This document shows, piece by piece, positions 1-10,955 of a stretch of DNA of 64,000 nt (its first letter is position 1; the number at the start of each line of letters is the position of its first letter). The stretch comes from a virus (lineage: Duplodnaviria > Caudoviricetes). The position numbers and the translations under genes are program-made. The notes under the pieces are model-generated. The model searched no databases. It saw only the letters and a program-made list of their open reading frames with translations, and was not told the DNA's origin. The stretch covers positions 1 to 64,000 of the IMG/VR virus record IMGVR_UViG_2974556029_000001; one strand, given 5' to 3'.

Positions 1-84
1 GCCCGCTCGCGATCGAAATTCCACGGCCGCCGGCTTGGCGGGGCGTGGGTTCGAGACGCGCGGGGGTGTCTCTCCTATGGCAGA

Positions 85-459
85 TCAGTCGCCCGGCGCG
101 ACACAGTCCCAGTTTCCGACGGTGTTGCCGTTCTGGTCGCGCACGTTGCCGGCGCGGTTGCCGCTCTCCACGCTTTCGGCGATTTGCCTAAGGATTTCGG
201 CGGCTTGCTGCTCGGGCTCCTGGGCGAAAGCGTCGTTCCCCATGCCGAACCAGAGCGAGAATTGCGGGCCTTCGGTGTTCATCCGGTCCACGGCCTCTAG
301 GGCCGCGTCCACGTCGCGGGCCTGCTGGTTGAAGTGGCTCGCGGCTTCGATCGCCTCGGCGATACTGGCGCGGCGATAGGCGGCTTGCGCGGCCTCACGG
401 TAGAACGCGGCCGAGGTATGCAGCGCTTGAATGATGGTCTTGAGGGTAGCTTGATCCAT
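85..459 (-). CDS. Small hypothetical phage protein
   Basis: 124 aa ORF with AGGAG RBS (CCCTGACAGGAGCCGCACCATG); C-terminal GNVRDQNGNTVGNW motif typical of small phage proteins. Confidence 0.7.
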   Translation of the reverse strand: MDQATLKTIIQALHTSAAFYREAAQAAYRRASIAEAIEAASHFNQQARDVDAALEAVDRMNTEGPQFSLWFGMGNDAFAQEPEQQAAEILRQIAESVESGNRAGNVRDQNGNTVGNWDCVAPGD

Positions 460-485
460 GGTGCGGCTCCTGTCAGGGGGCGGAA

Positions 486-505
486 TTGTCCCCGATCGGG
501 AACAA
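486..505. promoter_or_regulatory. Palindromic operator copy (TTGTCCCCGATCGGGAACAA)
   Basis: 20 bp palindrome with one mismatch, upstream of the 85-459 start; a related GTCCCCGAATTGGGGAC lies at 541-557. Confidence 0.65.
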
Positions 506-603
506 CCATAAGGCAGAAACGACTAGCGCGTGCCCCGATCGTCCCCGAATTGGGGACGGTTATTTCAGCGGGTCGCGGGTCGGATAGCGAAAAAGTTGCG
601 TGG

Positions 604-987
604 CTACTGCGAAACCGCCTTTGCGGCCGTGGTGAAGCGCCAGCCAGCAGCCCAGGCGCGCGCCTTCTCTTCGAAGCCGGGCGGGCGCGGATGGTCACGC
701 CCTGAGACGTCCCGTGTGGCGGTGAGGTAGGGGTTATGCGCCTCAGTGTAGCCCAGGCGCGCCGCGTCCATCCCGTCCGACATGATCGCAGCGAGGGGGA
801 AGTGGGCGTGATCCCAGGACCTGGGCGCCGGGGAACGCTCCCAGGACCAACGCGCGATCGGGGACAGCTCAGCCCAGGAAACGCGCGGCGTGCGCCTGCT
901 GTCTCCATTCAGGGGGCGAGCTGCAACGTCCGCCTCATAGGCGAGCTGAGCGAGGGAGGGGGCGCGGGCGATGGTGGCGGCTTGCAT
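604..987 (-). CDS. Hypothetical protein
   Basis: 127 aa ORF; ATG preceded by GGGAACACCTGAC, overlapping an operator copy. Confidence 0.6.
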   Translation of the reverse strand: MQAATIARAPSLAQLAYEADVAARPLNGDSRRTPRVSWAELSPIARWSWERSPAPRSWDHAHFPLAAIMSDGMDAARLGYTEAHNPYLTATRDVSGRDHPRPPGFEEKARAWAAGWRFTTAAKAVSQ

Positions 988-993
988 GTCAGG

Positions 994-1007
994 TGTTCCC
1001 GATCGGG
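994..1007. promoter_or_regulatory. Operator copy TGTTCCCGATCGGG
   Basis: Same core as 486-505, 6 bp upstream of the ATG at 987. Confidence 0.6.
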
Positions 1008-1021
1008 CTCAAATGAGGGGG

Positions 1022-1180
1022 TTACAGATAGGCGCGCTTAATGCGCTGGGCTTCAGCCAGCGAGGCGGCGCGGAACCCCTCGCTCTTGGTCTTGTCCTTC
1101 GCCTCGCGCATGCACCGGTCATAGCGGGCCTTGTAGCGGGCGCGTTGTTCACGTTCGGCGGGGGTGAGGGTAGAGCGCAT
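1022..1180 (-). CDS. Micro-protein (52 aa, MRSTLTPAEREQRARYKARY...)
   Basis: Read by hand: ATG at 1180, TAA at 1022-1024; same upstream context as the 987 gene; below the ORF-track cutoff. Confidence 0.55.
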   Translation of the reverse strand: MRSTLTPAEREQRARYKARYDRCMREAKDKTKSEGFRAASLAEAQRIKRAYL

Positions 1181-1185
1181 GTTGA

Positions 1186-1200
1186 TTGTTCCCGATCGGG
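1186..1200. promoter_or_regulatory. Operator copy TTGTTCCCGATCGGG
   Basis: Same core, 5 bp upstream of the ATG at 1180. Confidence 0.6.
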
Positions 1201-1363
1201 GCTCAAGCGGAGAGCAAGGCGAAGGAAAAGCCGCAAGCGGCGGATGACAGGACCAGGAGATAGGCGGCCCTCACGGGGCGGCGGCTACCCACGGCCATGG
1301 CGTAGAGCCCGACCATGCAACCGACCCCCATAGCGGCGACCCCGCCCAGGTGCAGGGCGGTTC

Positions 1364-1546
1364 TCACGCCGCACCCATGCGGCGCAGGTCAAACAGGGCC
1401 GATTGGCGCTTGACCTGGGCGACCATGACCCGCCGCTCATGACGGGCGCGGGCCGCCTCGCTAGTGGCAAGGGCCAGAGCGGCGAGGGCGTGCGACAGCT
1501 CGCGTTCAGCGCGGGCCAGCAGACGGGAGGCGCTACGGGCTTCCAT
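1364..1546 (-). CDS. Small helical hypothetical protein
   Basis: 60 aa ORF abutting the 1548-1676 gene. Confidence 0.5.
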   Translation of the reverse strand: MEARSASRLLARAERELSHALAALALATSEAARARHERRVMVAQVKRQSALFDLRRMGAA

Positions 1547-1547
1547 G

Positions 1548-1676
1548 TTAGATCACTCCGAAGAGGCGCAGCAGCAGCGCCCAGAGGAAGGCCGAGGCGA
1601 GGAACGCCCAGACCAGGGGAAGGCGACGGGAGGCGGGCCGCACGGGCGCGCCGGTGAAGGGGACGGGGAGGGACAT
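1548..1676 (-). CDS. Small membrane protein (MSLPVPF...LVWAFLASAFLWALLLRLFGVI)
   Basis: ATG overlaps the upstream gene's TGA; one hydrophobic helix. Confidence 0.5.
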   Translation of the reverse strand: MSLPVPFTGAPVRPASRRLPLVWAFLASAFLWALLLRLFGVI

Positions 1677-1969
1677 CAGGCGCGCGCCAACGTGGGGACC
1701 ATCGCGCCGCCATGCGACACATTCACGGGGATAAGCCCAAGGGTCCACTGCACCCGCACGCCATCGGCCTCAGTCCCATAGGTGACATGGGAGCCGGTGG
1801 CGCGGACCAGTTGCCCAGCCTCACCACGCCCGGCCAGCTCGAAGCGAGCGCCGCCGGTGTGAGGGTCAACGCTGTAGAGGACGCACGCCATGCGGTGGTG
1901 CTGAGGGCGCACGATGCGGGCGAGATGCGCCGGGGTGCGCTGGCGAAGGATGCGGGCGATAAGCGCCAT
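1676..1969 (-). CDS. Hypothetical protein (MALIARILRQ..., 97 aa)
   Basis: True start within track ORF 1676..2554: ATG at 1969 preceded by CCTGACAGGAG. Confidence 0.55.
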   Translation of the reverse strand: MALIARILRQRTPAHLARIVRPQHHRMACVLYSVDPHTGGARFELAGRGEAGQLVRATGSHVTYGTEADGVRVQWTLGLIPVNVSHGGAMVPTLARA

Positions 1970-2094
1970 GTCACTTGCTCCTGTCAGGTAGGGAAGGCTA
2001 CCCTTCCCCTTGTGGCCCCGGCTGCTCCCCGATGGAGCGGCCCCGAACCAAAGCGACAACCAACTATGGGACAGCAGACCCAAAACCACAAGAA

Positions 2095-2160
2095 AATAGA
2101 GGGGGGGGGTACCCTGGGAGATCGAGTCCCTACCTCGCAAAATTTTAATCCCCCCCTGCC
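2095..2160. other. Candidate DNA packaging (pac/cos-like) region
   Basis: G run, GGTACC, AAAATTTT and a C run just upstream of the probable terS, where gene orientation switches. Confidence 0.3.
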
Positions 2161-2191: not shown

Positions 2192-2848
2192 GTGGGGCAA
2201 GCGGCTGATGGGGCGCCCGGTGATGATGGATTGGCGCGGGACGCGGTCCAGGGTGCCGGCGAAGCCGAAGTCCCAACGGGCAGGGCGGTTGTGGCGGCGC
2301 GGCTCGAGGTGGGGCCGAACGGGCTGATCACGCGGGGCAAGGCGGAGCGGCTGGTGCAGTTGATGGCCGAAGGCATGTCCGATACTGAGGCGAGGGGGCC
2401 GGCCGGGTTCAAGTCGGACGGGGCGGACACCAAGCAGCGGCGCGGGATTGTCGCGTCGCCCGTGTTTCAGGCGAGGCTGGCCATGTTGAGCGAGGAGCGC
2501 GAGAAGCTGCAGGACCGCGGGCCGCTGGGCGACGCGCTGTGGGCCGCGAAGCAAACCTTCAGGGCCGCGCAGCTCAAGGACGACCTGACGACCCAGATGC
2601 GGGCCGCGCAGCTGATCGCCGACATCTCCAAGAACATGCAGGGCGGCGGCGATGGCGAGCCTGGCGCGGATGGCCCGGCTGCACCTGGCGCGCCGGCGGG
2701 CCGCGGACCTGGTCGGCCGGCGAGCGAGCTGAAGTCGACCAAGGTCAACATCGAGAAGATCACGCGCGACCTGAAGGAGATCGGTCTCCAGCCGCGCACA
2801 ATTCCGGCCGGCGCTACCTTGCCGGCCAAGGAGGAGGATCCGTTATGA
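2192..2848 (+). CDS. terS: Probable terminase small subunit
   Basis: HTH-like RLVQLMAEGMSDTEA, then VFQARLAMLSEE and RAAQLIADI segments typical of TerS; GAGGAG RBS before GTG 2192 (start uncertain); first gene of the late-strand block. Confidence 0.55.
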   Translation: MGQAADGAPGDDGLARDAVQGAGEAEVPTGRAVVAARLEVGPNGLITRGKAERLVQLMAEGMSDTEARGPAGFKSDGADTKQRRGIVASPVFQARLAMLSEEREKLQDRGPLGDALWAAKQTFRAAQLKDDLTTQMRAAQLIADISKNMQGGGDGEPGADGPAAPGAPAGRGPGRPASELKSTKVNIEKITRDLKEIGLQPRTIPAGATLPAKEEDPL

Positions 2849-3174
2849 CGCCGGTCCGCGCGATCAGGGTTTCCGATCTCGACGAGACGAGCCGCCCGGG
2901 CGAGTTCATGTGGCTCAGCCAGAGCGGCCATCCCGAGGCCGGCTGGGTCATGCTCAACTTCATGTGCCCGTGCGGCTGCGGGCGCGAGGGCGGCGTCACG
3001 ATCGACACGCCGTTCACCAGCAAGCAGGGCGAGACGCCGCGCTGGTGGTGGGACGGTAACGAGGAGCGGCCCACGCTGAAGCCCAGCATCGACTGGCGCT
3101 TGCCCGACGGCCAGGGCGGCACCGTGTCGCACTGGCACGGCTATCTGACCGAGGGCATCTTCGCCCCATGTTGA
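2845..3174 (+). CDS. DUF6527-like Zn-binding protein
   Basis: CPCGCG...WWWDG...PTLKPSI...HWHGYLTEG motif; GGAGGAGG RBS; overlaps the TerS stop. Confidence 0.6.
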   Translation: MTPVRAIRVSDLDETSRPGEFMWLSQSGHPEAGWVMLNFMCPCGCGREGGVTIDTPFTSKQGETPRWWWDGNEERPTLKPSIDWRLPDGQGGTVSHWHGYLTEGIFAPC

Positions 3175-3602
3175 AACAGGCCGCCAAGCCCTGCTCCGAT
3201 CGCGTCTTGAACCTGGTCGGAGCCGGGCTGAGGACGGCTGTGCTCCTGGACATGGCGCACCGGCTCCGCGCCGGTCACGACGTCATCCTGGCGAGCCAGA
3301 CCCTGCTGCAGGTCAAGACCATGATCGCCGACCTGGGCCGCCACCTGGGCCGCGGCGTGATCGAAGGCGAGGTGGCGCGCTGGGGCAACAGCGGCCACGC
3401 CCACTTCTTCGCGCTCGAGCCGGATCACCCTCGAGTCGCCGACCTGCTCTGCATCACGGCGGCCTGGTGCGACGAGCTCTACGGGTTCAGGGCGACCCGG
3501 AACCAGATCGGCGCGGCGAACCACCTGGTCAGAAACCTGCGCAAGGTGGTGCACGGCACCAATCCCAAGATCATGATCACGGGCGACCCAGCCTGGCCTT
3601 GA
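3168..3602 (+). CDS. Truncated TerL-ATPase paralog 1 (144 aa)
   Basis: RWGNSGHAHFFALE...AAWCDE...NLRKVVHGTNPKIMITGDP aligns with this window's TerL EWPNGAVAHVFSAE...AAWIDE...NLRFALRLGNNPQRIYTMTP. Confidence 0.75.
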   Translation: MLKQAAKPCSDRVLNLVGAGLRTAVLLDMAHRLRAGHDVILASQTLLQVKTMIADLGRHLGRGVIEGEVARWGNSGHAHFFALEPDHPRVADLLCITAAWCDELYGFRATRNQIGAANHLVRNLRKVVHGTNPKIMITGDPAWP

Positions 3603-4004: not shown

Positions 4005-4235
4005 CTATGCCGGCACACCTTCGCCAAGGTCGATCAGCATCTTCATGCCCAGGGCGGACACCGCCTTCATGACCAGACCGACGTGGGCCGTGGCCTTGCC
4101 GTTCTCGAGATCGACGATGAACCGGCGCCCCGAACCGATCTTCTGGGCCAGGTCGGCCTGGCTCCAGCCCTGCGCGACGCGGGCGTCCCGGATCAGCTGC
4201 CCGAACCTCGACGTGGTCTCGACGTGGATTTCCAT
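4005..4235 (-). CDS. XRE-family HTH regulator (HipB/Y4mF-like), orphan
   Basis: FGQLIRDARVAQGWSQADLAQKIGSGRRFIVDLENGKATAHVGLVMKAVSALG; no adjacent HipA kinase. Confidence 0.85.
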   Translation of the reverse strand: MEIHVETTSRFGQLIRDARVAQGWSQADLAQKIGSGRRFIVDLENGKATAHVGLVMKAVSALGMKMLIDLGEGVPA

Positions 4236-4248
4236 GGCGCACCTCATT

Positions 4249-4266
4249 TGTACCCGATCGGGAACA
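4249..4266. promoter_or_regulatory. Operator copy TGTACCCGATCGGGAACA (likely autoregulatory)
   Basis: Directly upstream of the HTH RBS and ATG. Confidence 0.7.
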
Positions 4267-4417: not shown

Positions 4418-4960
4418 ATGAAGCTTTTCAGCGAAGGAGTCCGGGTCGAGATCGGCAAGACCTCGAACCAGACCAAGATTACCGATCTGGCCACGGGCGA
4501 GTTGGTCGAGAACCTGATCGGCATGGCGATGGAGATCGACGGCAACAACCGGACCGATCGCCCTGTGTTGATCCTGGTCATCGGCGATGTCGACATGACG
4601 GTCGAGAACGATCGGGTCGACTACCAGGTCGACGCCGGCCTGCTCCAGCGCATCGCCGAGTTCAACGGCTTCGACCTCGTGCCCAAGCCTGAGCCGGTGG
4701 CCGACGTCGAGGACGACGAGCCCGAGCTTGTGGCCGCCTCCGTCTCGACCGAGGTGATAAAGCCCGACCTGGTTGAGGAGCTCGAAACCATCCCGTCGCT
4801 CCGGAACGACGCGGTGCAGGTCTCCGCCGCGACGGAACACCAGGCCGGCCAGCCGGTGGGGCGGGGCACCAACATCCTCAAGGGCGGCATCGGCGGCCTG
4901 AGCGAGGATCTCGGCACGGACGAGATCCCGCGCAGCCTCGACACGTCGGATCCGGTCTGA
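4418..4960 (+). CDS. Hypothetical protein, acidic C-terminal half
   Basis: 180 aa, GGAG RBS, phage codon usage. Confidence 0.7.
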   Translation: MKLFSEGVRVEIGKTSNQTKITDLATGELVENLIGMAMEIDGNNRTDRPVLILVIGDVDMTVENDRVDYQVDAGLLQRIAEFNGFDLVPKPEPVADVEDDEPELVAASVSTEVIKPDLVEELETIPSLRNDAVQVSAATEHQAGQPVGRGTNILKGGIGGLSEDLGTDEIPRSLDTSDPV

Positions 4961-5328
4961 TGACGAGCTTCAACGCCGTCCTCGAGGAGGTGTGGGCCAG
5001 CCTTCTGTCTGGCACCCTCACCCATGTCGTCGTGCTCCACGGCGGCGAGTCGAACGTTCTGATCGACGCGATCAAGGCCAAGATCAGCGCCGAGCAGGTC
5101 AACGTCACCCTGAACCTGAACGACAAGGTCGTGACCTTCGTCAACGGCGAGAAGCTGCGGATCATCGCCGGCGACGCCTCGGAGAAGCTGCGCGGTCTCA
5201 TGCTCGATGGCCTCTGGCTGCTGAACCTGGACGCGCTTCCGGTCGACGTCTGGCGCACGGCGCGGGACCGCGGCGTGATGGCTCTGCGTCTGGGCCGCAT
5301 GGCTCGCTTCGAGTCCTCGTTCGACTAG
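4960..5328 (+). CDS. Truncated TerL-ATPase paralog 2 (122 aa, Walker B lost)
   Basis: TFVNGEKLRIIAGDASEKLRGLMLDGLWLLN...MALRLG aligns with TerL EWPNGAVAHVFSAEDPESVRGHEFDAAWIDE...FALRLG. Confidence 0.7.
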   Translation: MTSFNAVLEEVWASLLSGTLTHVVVLHGGESNVLIDAIKAKISAEQVNVTLNLNDKVVTFVNGEKLRIIAGDASEKLRGLMLDGLWLLNLDALPVDVWRTARDRGVMALRLGRMARFESSFD

Positions 5329-5330
5329 AC

Positions 5331-5636
5331 ATGGACGATGCGACGCGGGCCCGGCTCCTTGAGCTGCAGCACGAACTGCTCTGGAGGAGCCCGGCCCGCG
5401 GCGCATCTGTCCTGATTTTCGAGCGCCCTGGCGTGGCCGAGATCAAGGCCTGGCTCTGGGCCCGCTACATCGGCGCGGACGAACTCACCTACCTGGCCCG
5501 CGCCGCTTTCGAGAAGCATGACGCGGTCGACATTGCGCTCTCGGGCGCCGGCGTGCTCCATGCCCATGTCAAAGGCGTCCTGGCCTGGCTGGTCGACCAG
5601 GGCGTCACCGTTCCGACCAGAGGAGAGACCACATGA
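5331..5636 (+). CDS. Hypothetical protein
   Basis: ATG 5331 follows the previous stop; phage codon usage. Confidence 0.65.
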   Translation: MDDATRARLLELQHELLWRSPARGASVLIFERPGVAEIKAWLWARYIGADELTYLARAAFEKHDAVDIALSGAGVLHAHVKGVLAWLVDQGVTVPTRGETT

Positions 5637-5830
5637 GCATCGTCACCCTGCAGACCGACAGCGGCGCGCACGTCCAGAACGTCCAGATCCCCGATCTCCG
5701 CCCGCCGGCCCGCGCCGTCGTCTGGGGCGAGCGCGTCTTCCTGCTGCACCAAGAGGCCGACTCGTCCGGGTCGCGGGCCGTGTATCGCGAAATCTTCGCC
5801 ATCGCGCCGATCGCGATCGGCAAGGACTAG
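5633..5830 (+). CDS. Small hypothetical protein
   Basis: AGGAGAG RBS, ATGA overlap with the upstream gene. Confidence 0.7.
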   Translation: MSIVTLQTDSGAHVQNVQIPDLRPPARAVVWGERVFLLHQEADSSGSRAVYREIFAIAPIAIGKD

Positions 5831-6960: not shown

Positions 6961-7206
6961 ATGGAAGACCAAATCATCCGCCAGGCCAAACTGGCCAAGC
7001 GCATCTTCACCACCCTGGAAGAGCGCTATCCCGACGACCAAGACCTGAAGAAGCTGCACGCCGTCGCCGCCGGTGGCCTGCAGATCCTGGGCATCGATCT
7101 CACCGCGATCGGCGAAGAAGCCAACCGCTCGGGCGGCGTCGACAAGAACGTCATCCTGGCCGACGAGAACGGCGAAGAGCCGGCGTCGGAAGGCGAAGAA
7201 GCCTGA
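6961..7206 (+). CDS. Small protein with RSGGVDK motif and acidic tail
   Basis: GGAG RBS before ATG 6961; coupled to the downstream membrane gene. Confidence 0.65.
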   Translation: MEDQIIRQAKLAKRIFTTLEERYPDDQDLKKLHAVAAGGLQILGIDLTAIGEEANRSGGVDKNVILADENGEEPASEGEEA

Positions 7207-8051
7207 TGGGTCCGCTGGCGCTGTTCTACGGCGCCATGACCGCCGCGGTCGCCATCCACGGGTGGCGATCGCGGTACTGGGACGTCTACATGGTGGGCGT
7301 GGTCCAGGTGGTCGGGTGGCTCATGTCGAACGCCTCCAATCTCCGCCTCCATGGCGTCGATATGATGGAGGGCTTTGCCTATACGGACTGCTTCATCCTG
7401 TCGGCCCTGCTGATCCTCTACGGAGCGCGGCCCACGTTCTGGAAGCTCCTGATCATGGGCCTGATCCTCCTGCAGAACGGGATGCACGTCGTTCAAGGCA
7501 CGTGGGGAGGCGAAGAGAGCCTGTCTCTCTACCGCTGGTTCTTGAACGGATCCTATGTCCTTCAGCTCGCGGTTCACCTGGTCGTGGTGCGCTATCCATC
7601 GTTCGACGTGGAGACCCGCCACGGGCCGGTAATGCGTCAAAAGCGCGCGGGCCTTCCGAAAGGCTCAGTTTCGCGGCATGGTCGGCCCAGACCCCACAGG
7701 AGCTGCACTCCGATGAAACGCATCTACCTGGCCGCCATGGTCGCCAGCATAGGCCTATCGGGCCTGATCATGTCCCCCGCCATGGCCTATCCCCCGCCCG
7801 GGCGCGAGCCCCCCGATTTCGTGCCGTTCGAAGTGGTCCAGGGCGGGCTCAGGATCCGCGCCCACCTCCGGGAGCTGCAGAACGGCGAGACGATCTCGCT
7901 CCCAGGCGCCTTCGTGCCGGCCGACACCTCGGAGGACCTGGCGATCTACTGGGACCGGCGATCCAAGGCCTATGTGGCGCGCCAGGGGACGGAATATCTG
8001 GTCAATCCCGTCCGATACGTCATGATCGGCAGAGCCAGAGCCCCCGACTGA
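7206..8051 (+). CDS. Multi-pass membrane protein with an in-frame downstream secreted ORF (internal ATG 7713)
   Basis: Four to five hydrophobic segments; AGGAG RBS before MKRIYLAAMVASIGLSGLIMSPAMA at 7713. Confidence 0.6.
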   Translation: MGPLALFYGAMTAAVAIHGWRSRYWDVYMVGVVQVVGWLMSNASNLRLHGVDMMEGFAYTDCFILSALLILYGARPTFWKLLIMGLILLQNGMHVVQGTWGGEESLSLYRWFLNGSYVLQLAVHLVVVRYPSFDVETRHGPVMRQKRAGLPKGSVSRHGRPRPHRSCTPMKRIYLAAMVASIGLSGLIMSPAMAYPPPGREPPDFVPFEVVQGGLRIRAHLRELQNGETISLPGAFVPADTSEDLAIYWDRRSKAYVARQGTEYLVNPVRYVMIGRARAPD

Positions 8052-8133: not shown

Positions 8134-9564
8134 ATGGACCGAATGGAATCGCCCTTCTATCGCGCCGGGTTGACGCGAGAGTGGTGGACCTCGTTGCCTG
8201 AGGAGGAGCGCGCCAGGGTGCTGGCGTCGTGGACCCCTGTCGAAATCGAAGCCTTCGCCAAGGACTGGCGCGTCTGGGCCCGCGATCAGCAGCTTCCGCC
8301 GCCGGGCCAGTGGCGCTCCTGGATCCTGAAGTGCGGCCGCGGCTTCGGGAAGAACCGCAGCGCCGGCGAGCAGGTCAAGGACTGGGTCGAGAGCGGCCAG
8401 AAGGGGCGTATCTGCCTCCTGGGCCAGGGCGAGGCCGACGTGCGCGACATCATGGTCGAGGGCAAGTCGGGCCTGCTGGCCATCTCGAACAGCTGGTTCC
8501 GCCCTAAGTGGTCTCCGAGCCGCGGCGGCGGCCTGCTCGAATGGCCCAACGGCGCGGTGGCGCACGTCTTCTCGGCCGAGGATCCGGAGTCTGTCCGGGG
8601 GCACGAGTTCGACGCGGCCTGGATCGACGAGCCCATGTCCTACAAGGCCAAGAACCGGCAGGACATCATCTCCAACCTCCGCTTCGCCCTGCGCCTGGGC
8701 AACAACCCGCAGCGGATCTACACGATGACGCCGAAGCCGCACAAATGGCTTCGTGAGCTCCTGGCCACGGTCAATCCAGCCAAGGGCATCTACCTGACCG
8801 AGGGCTCCACCTACGACAACGTGGACAACCTGCCGCCGGCGTTCCTCGAGGACGTGACCGACGACTACGCCGGCACCAGGCTGGGCGAGCAGGAGCTGAG
8901 CGGCATCCTGCTGAACGACACCGAAGACGCCCTCTGGACCAGCATGCTTCTGGACCGGTGCCGGATCATGAAGGAGGCCTCGGAAGAGGAGATCATGAAT
9001 TTCGCCAAGTCGATGGAGCGCATCGTCGTGGCGGTCGACCCGAACATCTCGGCCACCGGCACGAGCCACGCCGCCGGCGTCACCGTCATTGGCCGCAAGG
9101 CGGGCAAGCGCTATCTCCTGGCCGACAAGACCAAGCGAGGCGGCCCAGACGTCTGGGGCAAGAACGCCGTGAACGCCTATGCGGACTGGAACGCCGACGA
9201 GATCGTGGCCGAGGTGAACCAGGGTGGCGACCTGGTCAAATCCGTGATCCAGCAGGTCGGTGTCTCGCTCGGGATTGACGTGCCGGTCCACAAGGTCCAT
9301 GCGACTCGAGGCAAGCAGAAACGCGCCGAGCCGGTGGCCGCGGCTTACGAGCAAGGTCGCTGCCTGCACGTCGGGCCGGCCTCGCGCTACACCAAGGTGG
9401 AGAGCCAGATGTGCGACCTGCACGAGGGTAACGACCAGACCGGCGAAGACTTCGACCGAAGCGACTCGGTGGTGTGGGGCATGACCCGTCTCGCCAAGGG
9501 CGAAGGGGGCGTGACCAGCGCCGGAGGTTCGGGCATCTTCACCTTCGACCAGATCGGAGCATAG
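8134..9564 (+). CDS. terL: Terminase large subunit
   Basis: Walker A-like CGRGFGKN, Walker B AAWIDE, coupling motif YTMTP, RNase H-like nuclease IVVAVDP...DRSDSVVW. Confidence 0.95.
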   Translation: MDRMESPFYRAGLTREWWTSLPEEERARVLASWTPVEIEAFAKDWRVWARDQQLPPPGQWRSWILKCGRGFGKNRSAGEQVKDWVESGQKGRICLLGQGEADVRDIMVEGKSGLLAISNSWFRPKWSPSRGGGLLEWPNGAVAHVFSAEDPESVRGHEFDAAWIDEPMSYKAKNRQDIISNLRFALRLGNNPQRIYTMTPKPHKWLRELLATVNPAKGIYLTEGSTYDNVDNLPPAFLEDVTDDYAGTRLGEQELSGILLNDTEDALWTSMLLDRCRIMKEASEEEIMNFAKSMERIVVAVDPNISATGTSHAAGVTVIGRKAGKRYLLADKTKRGGPDVWGKNAVNAYADWNADEIVAEVNQGGDLVKSVIQQVGVSLGIDVPVHKVHATRGKQKRAEPVAAAYEQGRCLHVGPASRYTKVESQMCDLHEGNDQTGEDFDRSDSVVWGMTRLAKGEGGVTSAGGSGIFTFDQIGA

Positions 9565-9566
9565 AC

Positions 9567-10955
9567 GTGGCAGGCCTGACCGACAAAACCCGCGAGTACG
9601 GTGAGCAGGTCACCGTCTACACCGACGCGATGGACAGCGCGGGCTATATCCCGGAGCTGCGCGGCCCGCTCGGGCTGAAGCGCCTGGCCAAGATGGCGGA
9701 GACCGACGATACCGTCGGCGCCATGATGTGGGCCGTGGAGACCACGATGGCCCAGGTGGTCTGGAGCCACGAGGCGGCCAAGGACGGCAAGCCGTCGAAC
9801 GATCCCAAGGCGGCCCAAGCGGCCGACTTCGCCAACACCCTCCTGGGCGACATGGAGCACAGCTTCCAGGAGCACGTGGACGAGGCCATGAGCATGCTCT
9901 GGGCCGGCTTCTCGATCTGCGAGATCCTGCCCAAGCAGCGTGACGGCCAGAACTCCAAGTTCCCGGATGGGAAATGGGGCATCGACGCCCTAGTGGCGCG
10001 CCCTCAAACCTCGGTCAGCGGATGGGGCGTTGAGAACGGCCGGGTCACCACCGTCAAGACGATGACGACCATGGGGGAGAAGGAAATCCCCCTGTTCAAG
10101 TGCCTGCACTACAAGATCAAGGGCAACAGCCGCACCAGGCCGCAGGGTCGGTCCCTGTTCACTAACGCCTATCGTAGCTGGTACCTCAAGAACGACATCC
10201 AGGACGCCGAAGCGATCGGGATCCGGCGCGAGCTCTGCGGTCTCCCTGTCGCCAGCGTGCCTATGGCCGACATCAACGCGGCGACGAAGAAGGGCTCTGA
10301 CGGCAAACTGTCGCCCGAGGGCGAGGCCGCCCTGGCCCGGATCACCGCCTTTAAGACCGCCGTGTCCAAGATGCGGCTCAACGAGACGTCTGGCCTGGTC
10401 AAGCCGTCGGATCCGTTCCTCGACGAGGACGGCAAGCCGAGCATGATCCCGCAGTACGACTTCAAGATCCTGAGCGGCGGCGGCCAGCGCTCCATGGATC
10501 CGCGCGCGCCGATCCGCGACTACGACCGCGCCATCGCCCGCGTCGCCATGATGCAATTCCTGCACCTGGGCGATCGCTCGACCGGCTCCTACGCCCTGTC
10601 CGACAACCAGAGCACCCTGGCCCTGCGCTCGATGCGAGCCCTGGTGGGCAAGATCATCGACGAGTGGAACCGCAAGGTCCTGCCGCTGCTGTGGGAGCTG
10701 AACGGCATGGACAAGGCCTACATGCCCGTCCTGACCTCCTCGCCCATCACCGAGGACAGCCTGGAAGAACTGGGCACCTTCCTTGAGCGCCTGAGCTCGG
10801 CCCAGCTGCTTCTGGACGAAGAGCCCGAGCTGAAGGAGAGCATGCTGAGCCGGATCGGCATCAGGCGCGATCGCGTGACGAAGCCGGCCGGCGCCCGCGC
10901 CCGCCTACGTCCGGCCCAGCCTCCGACGCCGGAGCCGGCGCGTGCCGCTGCGTGA
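9567..10955 (+). CDS. Portal protein (DUF935-like)
   Basis: Directly after TerL; PQGRSLFTNAYRSWYLK...EAIGIRRELCGLPVA motif; GTG start with GGAG RBS. Confidence 0.88.
   Translation: MAGLTDKTREYGEQVTVYTDAMDSAGYIPELRGPLGLKRLAKMAETDDTVGAMMWAVETTMAQVVWSHEAAKDGKPSNDPKAAQAADFANTLLGDMEHSFQEHVDEAMSMLWAGFSICEILPKQRDGQNSKFPDGKWGIDALVARPQTSVSGWGVENGRVTTVKTMTTMGEKEIPLFKCLHYKIKGNSRTRPQGRSLFTNAYRSWYLKNDIQDAEAIGIRRELCGLPVASVPMADINAATKKGSDGKLSPEGEAALARITAFKTAVSKMRLNETSGLVKPSDPFLDEDGKPSMIPQYDFKILSGGGQRSMDPRAPIRDYDRAIARVAMMQFLHLGDRSTGSYALSDNQSTLALRSMRALVGKIIDEWNRKVLPLLWELNGMDKAYMPVLTSSPITEDSLEELGTFLERLSSAQLLLDEEPELKESMLSRIGIRRDRVTKPAGARARLRPAQPPTPEPARAAA

Follow-up and report, generated by a model that had tools for sequence, protein, structure and literature searches.

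The ATPase domain of the phage large terminase (TerL) is a main target of bacterial pattern-recognition immunity by Avs1-3 and Upx. This domain alone activates EcAvs2 and Upx; EcAvs2 touches the terminase-bound ATP via a bridging ATP, and Upx is predicted from AlphaFold 3 models to bind unfolded core strands (PMC13601566, PMC11564622). Phage proteins that copy the TerL ATPase fold have been reported recently, Ksap1 and Ksap2 in 2024 and T4 vs.8 in 2026, and their authors call the purpose of these proteins open. For all three small TerL-like proteins, a place in the Avs2 pocket and a role as triggers are predicted, and it was suggested that they may be anti-defence proteins that Avs2 has learned to see (PMC13601566, PMC11564622). 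Here we describe mini2, a gene for a 122-aa protein on the first 64,000 nucleotides of a Caudoviricetes virus record (IMGVR_UViG_2974556029_000001; hereafter the window). Its protein is identical, letter for letter, to UniProt A0A0K1LMK7, an uncharacterized protein of Caulobacter phage Sansa (found in BFVD), and the source genome is that of Sansa. mini2 is probably a truncated, non-enzymatic derivative of the additional-strand, catalytic-glutamate (ASCE) core of the large-terminase ATPase domain.

Judged from its modelled structure, mini2 would belong with the vs.8/Ksap type of small, stand-alone genes of TerL-ATPase fold that accompany a full TerL. It resembles T4 vs.8 (Evans et al., 2026, PMC13601566) in being a small separate gene in a phage with a full terminase gene, but vs.8 keeps both Walker A and Walker B and mini2 keeps neither, and the two have independent origins from different TerL clades. 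KpAvs2 is triggered by Ksap1 and by Ksap2 of phage Bas60, neither of which resembles TerL in sequence (Bechon et al., 2024, PMC11564622). Unlike them, mini2 keeps TerL motif residues. As the class of stand-alone TerL-ATPase look-alikes is already known, mini2 is an extreme variant of it (122 aa, no P-loop strand and no catalytic Asp-Glu pair) and, on its own, its weakest and most degenerate example. What is new is one cultured Caulobacter phage with three differently crippled terminase pieces.

The comparison rests on the following features, in which TerL residue numbers count from the Met at 8134:

4960 to 5328, plus strand: mini2, 122 aa, UniProt A0A0K1LMK7, the probable truncated, catalytically dead look-alike of the TerL ATPase core

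8134 to 9564, plus strand: TerL, the full large terminase, 476 aa, in an open reading frame (ORF) open from 8077, of gene transfer agent (GTA) type, with Pfam Terminase_6N and Terminase_6C

8362 to 8724, plus strand: the part of TerL paralleled by mini2, residues 77-197, from just after the P-loop to the C-motif strand

An earlier note had read the ORF at 4960-5328 as a degenerate fragment of the TerL ATPase core; the coordinates and the peptides it quoted are correct, and the reading is supported. Against a TerL profile made from a 55-sequence alignment of database relatives, hhalign placed mini2 residues 54-116 on TerL 131-193 without a gap (P 2.6e-4, score 32.9), and 60 shuffled versions of mini2 scored 14.5 on average (sd 2.6, maximum 20.8). 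Among 62 coding-type ORFs of the window, the best after TerL itself were a second candidate fragment, mini1 (score 34.2), and mini2, which fall on the same TerL segment; the next was a 725-aa protein at 25.2. In about 220 ORFs from seven related loci, a score of 31 was reached by true terminase paralogues and by a single 23-column match only, to a 108-aa ORF (L005:9350-9676, score 31.0) that is unexplained. A hidden Markov model (HMM) of the TerL ATPase segment, run without filters over 2,563 six-frame ORFs, gave E 0.0034 for mini1 and 0.0061 for mini2, with the next unrelated ORF at 0.27; an HMM from the 55 TerLs gave mini2 E-values of 0.006-0.02 in the same set. Low-mact hhalign extended the alignment to mini2 7-120 on TerL 77-197, and MAFFT independently recovered the register proposed in the earlier note, including its N-terminal pairing.

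The ORF behind the 23-column match is one of two genes of about 105 aa that lie directly upstream of TerL in L005 (9350-9676, plus strand) and L004 (9362-9676, plus strand). About 20 C-terminal residues of these genes align with TerL 139-161 (hhalign P 4e-4 in L005). This stretch may be what is left of a small duplication, or the match may be spurious.

Several observations weigh against the terminase assignment. The pairwise comparison of mini2 with TerL is not significant (BLASTP, 26 residues, E 0.03; Smith-Waterman z 1.8-2.7), and the hhalign probability against the TerL profile is only 42-46%, when the usual bar is 90%. The parallel drawn in the earlier note stands for one half of the protein. 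In the C-terminal half, FVNGEKLRIIAGDASEKLRGLMLDGLWLLN...ALRLG lies against TerL WPNGA...VRGHEFDAAWIDE...ALRLG in the register proposed, and it is this segment that gives the hhalign match above. In the N-terminal half, where LLSG and VVVLHGGESNV were paired with VESG and ICLLGQGEADV, residues 1-52 alone score 9.9 against the TerL profile, below a shuffle mean of 12.1, and the pairing has the predicted structure as its one support. Lastly, mini2 has no homologues, so purifying selection on it is not measurable. Taken together, the sequence comparisons suggest a likeness to TerL that is real but weak, and that in the C-terminal half is more than chance. The identity of mini2 to Sansa TerL (25%) is no higher than to the TerLs of other phages (19-27%), and mini2 is not a recent copy.

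The alignments identify which TerL motifs are kept and which are lost:

5143 to 5148, plus strand: N62-G63, equal to N139-G140 of the TerL WPNG motif by the alignments and by T4 gp17 equivalence; kept

5191 to 5196, plus strand: R78-G79, equal to R155-G156 of the TerL LRG, an invariant pair that precedes the catalytic Glu by 10-11 residues; kept

5221 to 5226, plus strand: L88-N89, at the Walker B pair D165-E166; catalytic pair lost

5284 to 5295, plus strand: L109-R110-L111-G112, identical to TerL LRLG (L186-G189); kept

In TerL terms, mini2 begins with the helix that follows the P-loop, continues with the WPNG strand, the LRG loop and the Walker B strand, and ends at the strand that bears the C-motif. 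It keeps the near-invariant TerL positions N139, G140, L154, R155, G156, W163, L186, R187 and G189 and has lost R92, D102, R104, G110, P138, D165, E166, L182 and P192. The TerL Asp-Glu pair aligns with T4 gp17 D255/E256, which fixes L88-N89 at the catalytic pair, and TerL TTTP aligns with the gp17 C-motif. This motif (TTT/TMT) is absent from mini2, which ends ...RFESSFD opposite TerL ...RIYTMTP, with S120 alone facing T197. The position of TerL R155 is presumably that of the arginine finger, as in P74-26 R139.

The replacement of Asp-Glu by Leu-Asn and the lack of both Walker A and a nuclease, all of which had been proposed, were confirmed by the alignments and by checks of the upstream frames. 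The alignment of mini2 with TerL begins past the P-loop, and no Walker A of the form found in this clade (G-R-G-x-G-K-[TN]) occurs in the 122 aa of mini2, farther upstream in the mini2 reading frame, or in that of the preceding gene, g4418. The protein ends at the C-motif strand and has no Terminase_6C match. Because mini2 lacks Walker A, the catalytic pair and the nuclease, its sequence makes an ATPase or nuclease activity of the TerL type very unlikely. Solved examples of N-subdomain I, the ASCE core, are those of D6E TerL (5OE8), P74-26 TerL (4ZNK) and T4 gp17 (2O0H). mini2 is like this subdomain in its collinear secondary structure, NG turn, LRG, Trp before Walker B and LRLG, and unlike TerL in having no beta1/P-loop, catalytic pair, TTT C-motif, lid or nuclease (122 versus 476 aa).

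It had also been argued that the fragment was selected for its surface rather than for catalysis. This argument fails, because the residues shared with TerL (those listed above apart from L154) are invariant motif positions, retained as motif and fold residues and not as a surface specific to the phage's own TerL. The identity values given above, no higher for Sansa TerL than for foreign ones, tell against it as well.

The ESMFold model of mini2 in the ESM Atlas has a pTM of 0.62, and all of the structural neighbours listed for it are large terminases or fragments of them (TM 0.77-0.80 over residues 1-120), a result independent of the alignments made here. AlphaFold2 (AF2) run on the single sequence gave a poor model (pLDDT 45), with which a PDB search was meaningless. 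Guided by a multiple sequence alignment, AF2 reached a pLDDT of 88.8, and the first matches were the TerLs of D6E, P74-26, Sf6 and T4; this is partly circular, and we used that model for mapping only, since its alignment assumes homology. The two AF2 runs agree on the order of helices and strands. On these models, mini2 is predicted to have a TerL-type ASCE fold.

A search of BFVD with the mini2 model returned many small uncharacterised phage proteins of similar fold. Among them, actinophage proteins of 108-155 aa match the whole model at TM 0.6-0.77, predicted fold against predicted fold. They come from the Gordonia phages Hedwig and NancyRae, the Arthrobacter phages Yavru and MargaretKali and the Mycobacterium phages DirkDirk and Ryadel, and may be further mini terminase-core look-alikes.

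By sequence, mini2 is an orphan. Searches with it of phages (tblastn), of 5.8 billion protein clusters and of viral contigs returned mini2 alone, and no additional genomes were found through the conserved neighbour gene g5331. It has no Pfam family at E<=1 and no PHROG match, and falls below the gathering score of Pfam PF03237 (Terminase_6N). Among 1.84 billion representatives, phmmer listed mini2 itself and two giant repeat proteins with immunoglobulin (Ig)/cadherin-like repeats (Big_9, Cadherin_4/5, LapA), and mini2 matches one repeat unit of a giant repeat protein by pairwise BLASTP at E 2e-6. We rejected these as relatives: the phmmer scores are summed over 7-14 repeats and were judged to be repeat-inflated, the matches cross an Ig-domain boundary, and the stretch is predicted to be helix-strand-helix. 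Both AF2 runs place helices at mini2 residues 4-17 and 31-45, in contrast to the all-beta Ig fold.

The ORF at 4960-5328 is a real gene. Its GC content at codon positions 1/2/3 is 0.65/0.37/0.92, compared with 0.63/0.47/0.89 for TerL, and the overlapping frames have no such pattern. Its ATG overlaps the TGA of g4418 as TGATG, and the next gene, g5331, begins 2 nt past its stop codon. mini2 is the second gene of a tight block of four (g4418, mini2, g5331 and g5633, in this order). An HTH_3 regulator gene transcribed divergently from it precedes the block, and the space between the two contains a palindrome:

4005 to 4247, minus strand: HTH_3 regulator gene, divergent; Pfam HTH_3 E 2e-10

4249 to 4266: palindrome TGTACCCGATCGGGAACA, just upstream of the HTH_3 gene start, between this gene and the g4418 operon

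4418 to 4960, plus strand: g4418, first gene of the block, translationally coupled to mini2

5331 to 5636, plus strand: g5331, 101 aa, 66% identical to its orthologue on contig L002 (see below)

5633 to 5830, plus strand: g5633, 65 aa, closing the block and followed by a gap of about 430 nt without genes

The N-terminal 90 aa of g4418 are conserved in relatives, in which its homologue lies just upstream of TerL. We found no fold or family for g4418 with Pfam or PHROGs, and an ESM Atlas search with it was uninformative, as was a promoter and terminator scan. A shorter palindrome, CCCGATCGGG, occurs seven times in the window (at 491, 998, 1191, 4253, 12528, 20418 and 49168), with 0.34 occurrences expected from shuffles; the copy at 4253 falls inside TGTACCCGATCGGGAACA, between the HTH_3 gene and the g4418-mini2 operon.

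Sansa is a siphophage of Caulobacter crescentus with a unit genome of 78,170 bp, a packaged length of 80,297 bp and a 2,127-bp terminal repeat that was found in raw reads (PMC4599082). Window positions 1-2127 are an exact direct terminal repeat of genome positions 78171-80297, in agreement with the repeat published for Sansa. The left end has mini1 and mini2 1-3 kb inside it. Sansa TerL is listed among the phage TerLs close to those of RcGTA (PMC7947584). The Caulobacter host carries a GTA with a related TerL (PMC7947584) and an NLR-like (nucleotide-binding leucine-rich repeat-like) lysis system (PMC13236601).

Besides TerL, Sansa carries two ATPase fragments and one nuclease-domain gene. In addition to mini2, these are:

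3168 to 3602, plus strand: mini1, 144 aa, another fragment of the TerL ATPase, in which Walker A is degenerate (GAGLRT) and AAWCDE is intact

64884 to 65702 of the genome (G000), beyond the window end, minus strand: nuclease-domain gene, matching TerL HMM positions 282-451 (E 2e-23)

The earlier note had spoken of two differently degraded copies in one genome, and mini1, which keeps AAWCDE, bears this out (BLASTP against TerL E 6e-6, Smith-Waterman z 9.2, besides its hhalign score given above). A DUF6527 gene lies just before mini1 (2845-3174, plus strand; Pfam E 5e-15), with a weak relative at L010:8415-8723.

The closest relative found is a metagenome contig (L002) whose TerL is 77% identical to that of Sansa. 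The neighbours of mini2 in the block are also recognisable there, at 41% (g4418), 66% (g5331) and about 33% (g5633) identity. Between the orthologues of g4418 and g5331, L002 has a gene for a 166-aa protein (L002:4038-4538, plus strand) that cannot be aligned to mini2 by BLAST. mini2 thus diverges far faster between Sansa and L002 than its neighbours and TerL do. The L002 slot gene is collinear with TerL (RRGQGKS, IDLVGPT, KVVIWHPGD, GGAWFDD, KIVLTGEVP), has an intact Walker A (RRGQGKS) and matches the TerL profile on the Walker A half (hhalign P 0.004). It was itself an orphan in homologue searches, and is nearer by sequence to mini1 (hhalign P 0.008) than to mini2. When mini2 was compared with mini1, the L002 slot gene and a profile of the paralogues of about 200 aa described below, the results were not significant or were weaker than that with TerL, and since the direct comparison is not significant, the orthology of mini2 and the L002 slot gene is by position alone. 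In the same contig, the counterpart of a 281-aa gene that lies just upstream of TerL in Sansa (7206-8051) as one ORF is split into two genes, L002 6266-6709 (residues 1-147) and 9582-9920 (residues 170-281), about 2.9 kb apart with a 718-aa gene included in the interval.

Stand-alone ATPase paralogues of 188-213 aa were identified at three further loci (L009:6853-7419, L010:5525-6166 and L011:7395-8027, all on the plus strand), with hhalign probabilities of 97.8-97.9%. They lie 2-4.5 kb upstream of TerL and have an intact Walker A, with ED, ED and DN, respectively, in place of DE; those of L010 and L011 share 47% identity over 200 aa. Downstream of each comes a DUF1153-like gene (a Pfam match in L011, BLAST homologues in L009 and L010) and then by a gene of about 93 aa with weak similarity to Sansa g3618, the gene after mini1. 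L008 has a separate nuclease-only gene (L008:4600-5559, plus strand, 319 aa, Terminase_6C E 3e-10) directly after a TerS-like gene, and in L004-L007 no stand-alone TerL-ATPase gene was found within 10 kb upstream of TerL. As the stand-alone TerL pieces in Sansa, L002 and L008-L011 show, TerL-derived accessory genes recur in this phage group, though not universally. Each version is lineage-specific, and the set is fast-evolving in Sansa-like phages. mini2 shares with mini1 and with the L002, L009, L010 and L011 genes the form of a stand-alone TerL-ATPase core located 2-5 kb upstream of TerL. Only mini1 keeps the canonical DE, which is FDD in L002, ED in L009 and L010, DN in L011 and LN in mini2. 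mini2 is the shortest of these genes and the sole one without the Walker A strand, for which the others have GK[ST], or GAGLRT in mini1.

What would such a protein do? We tentatively favour a dead ATPase-core look-alike that acts by binding, with a variable external partner the favoured one, as the best explanation of the locus as a whole. A protein that spans the helix after the P-loop through the Walker B strand to the C-motif strand, without the P-loop strand, Walker A, the catalytic Asp-Glu (here Leu-Asn), the lid subdomain and the nuclease, would neither bind nor hydrolyse ATP in the way of TerL, nor cut DNA. It would instead work as a binding protein that imitates part of the TerL ATPase fold. 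Its partner would more likely be something variable outside the phage than the packaging motor, the best candidate being a sensor of the TerL ATPase fold in the host, such as Avs, Upx or an NLR-type sensor. We favour an external, variable partner because mini2 and its positional counterpart can no longer be recognised as alike, whereas TerL stays 77% identical; a protein that binds the conserved TerL should have been conserved along with it, making the packaging motor a less likely partner. Taken alone, the functional claim, that mini2 binds such a partner (likeliest a host TerL-fold sensor, which it may either blunt or trigger), is a doubtful one. Rapid divergence fits relaxed constraint as well as an arms race, and the known analogues, vs.8 and Ksap1/2, activate Avs2 and do not inhibit it.

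In an alternative that we regard as unlikely, a partial duplication of TerL or the replacement of a terminase left mini2 behind beside g4418, where it is slowly decaying, still open and translated but functionless. In L008-L011 a single small gene separates the g4418 homologue from TerL downstream, which places the Sansa/L002 slot near the expected TerL 5' end. The decay also looks progressive, with Walker A and FDD kept in L002 and the N-terminus and DE lost in Sansa; mini2 has extreme divergence and no homologues, and a GC content of 66% makes long ORFs arise easily. However, the GC2 of 0.37 and GC3 of 0.92 are a normal coding signature, which neutral drift for that long should have eroded. 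Tight packing and coupling of the block genes, a sequence that is predicted to fold, intact TerL-derived ORFs in several lineages (including the L010/L011 pair) and the retention of three fragments in one genome also argue for more than debris.

A role in packaging also seems improbable. mini2 might bind the terminase of its own phage, of a competitor or of the host GTA and tune or poison ATPase firing or motor assembly, for example by docking on the TerL ring via the LRG arginine that it retains and the surface next to it. ASCE rings are commonly regulated by dead subunits, and mini2 has kept the equivalents of R155-G156, W163 and R187 while losing its own active site. TerL and the head genes lie downstream of it and share its strand, and the GTA-type TerL of Sansa and the GTA of its host (PMC7947584) would suit such a role. 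The conservation of TerL between Sansa and L002 is hard to reconcile with slot genes that cannot be aligned, and the lack of such a gene within 10 kb upstream of TerL in L004-L007 and a likeness of mini2 to its own TerL no closer than to foreign TerLs speak against it too.

That mini2 is not terminase-derived at all, but a product of chance or convergence on a common alpha/beta fold, an unrelated orphan or a relative of the Ig/cadherin-like repeats, is quite unlikely: it would agree with the hhalign probability below 50%, the missing Pfam, PHROG and significant BLASTP matches, the two giant repeat proteins listed by phmmer with the E of 2e-6 to one repeat unit, the many small phage proteins of similar fold in BFVD and the score reached by the unrelated L005 ORF over 23 columns, but three methods put the match in one collinear register, on invariant residues specific to TerL, mini1 significantly matches the same TerL segment, the ESM Atlas neighbours are exclusively terminases, and the repeat-protein scores were inflated as described.

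Returning to a look-alike that binds a host sensor, a more specific version of it, to which we give little credence, is that mini2, mini1 and the stand-alone dead nuclease domain form a mimic that occupies host TerL-fold sensors without activating them. The sensors in question would be Avs1-3, Upx or a Caulobacter NLR-like system such as LypABC. One possible reason for the silence of the mimic, by analogy with EcAvs2, is that mini2 could not present the bound ATP that this sensor contacts. Inhibitors that mimic the terminase are not known, and the anti-Avs proteins catalogued so far (the ORF55 ligase and ORF83) are of other kinds. Given this, and the known analogues that trigger, the decoy reading is possible but unsupported. 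If true, it would make mini2 the first decoy of a phage to be modelled on a target of pattern recognition. The host of Sansa, Caulobacter crescentus CB15, is a model organism with a GTA of closely related TerL and an NLR-like lysis system, in which it is testable whether such terminase pieces are immune decoys, triggers, motor regulators or debris.

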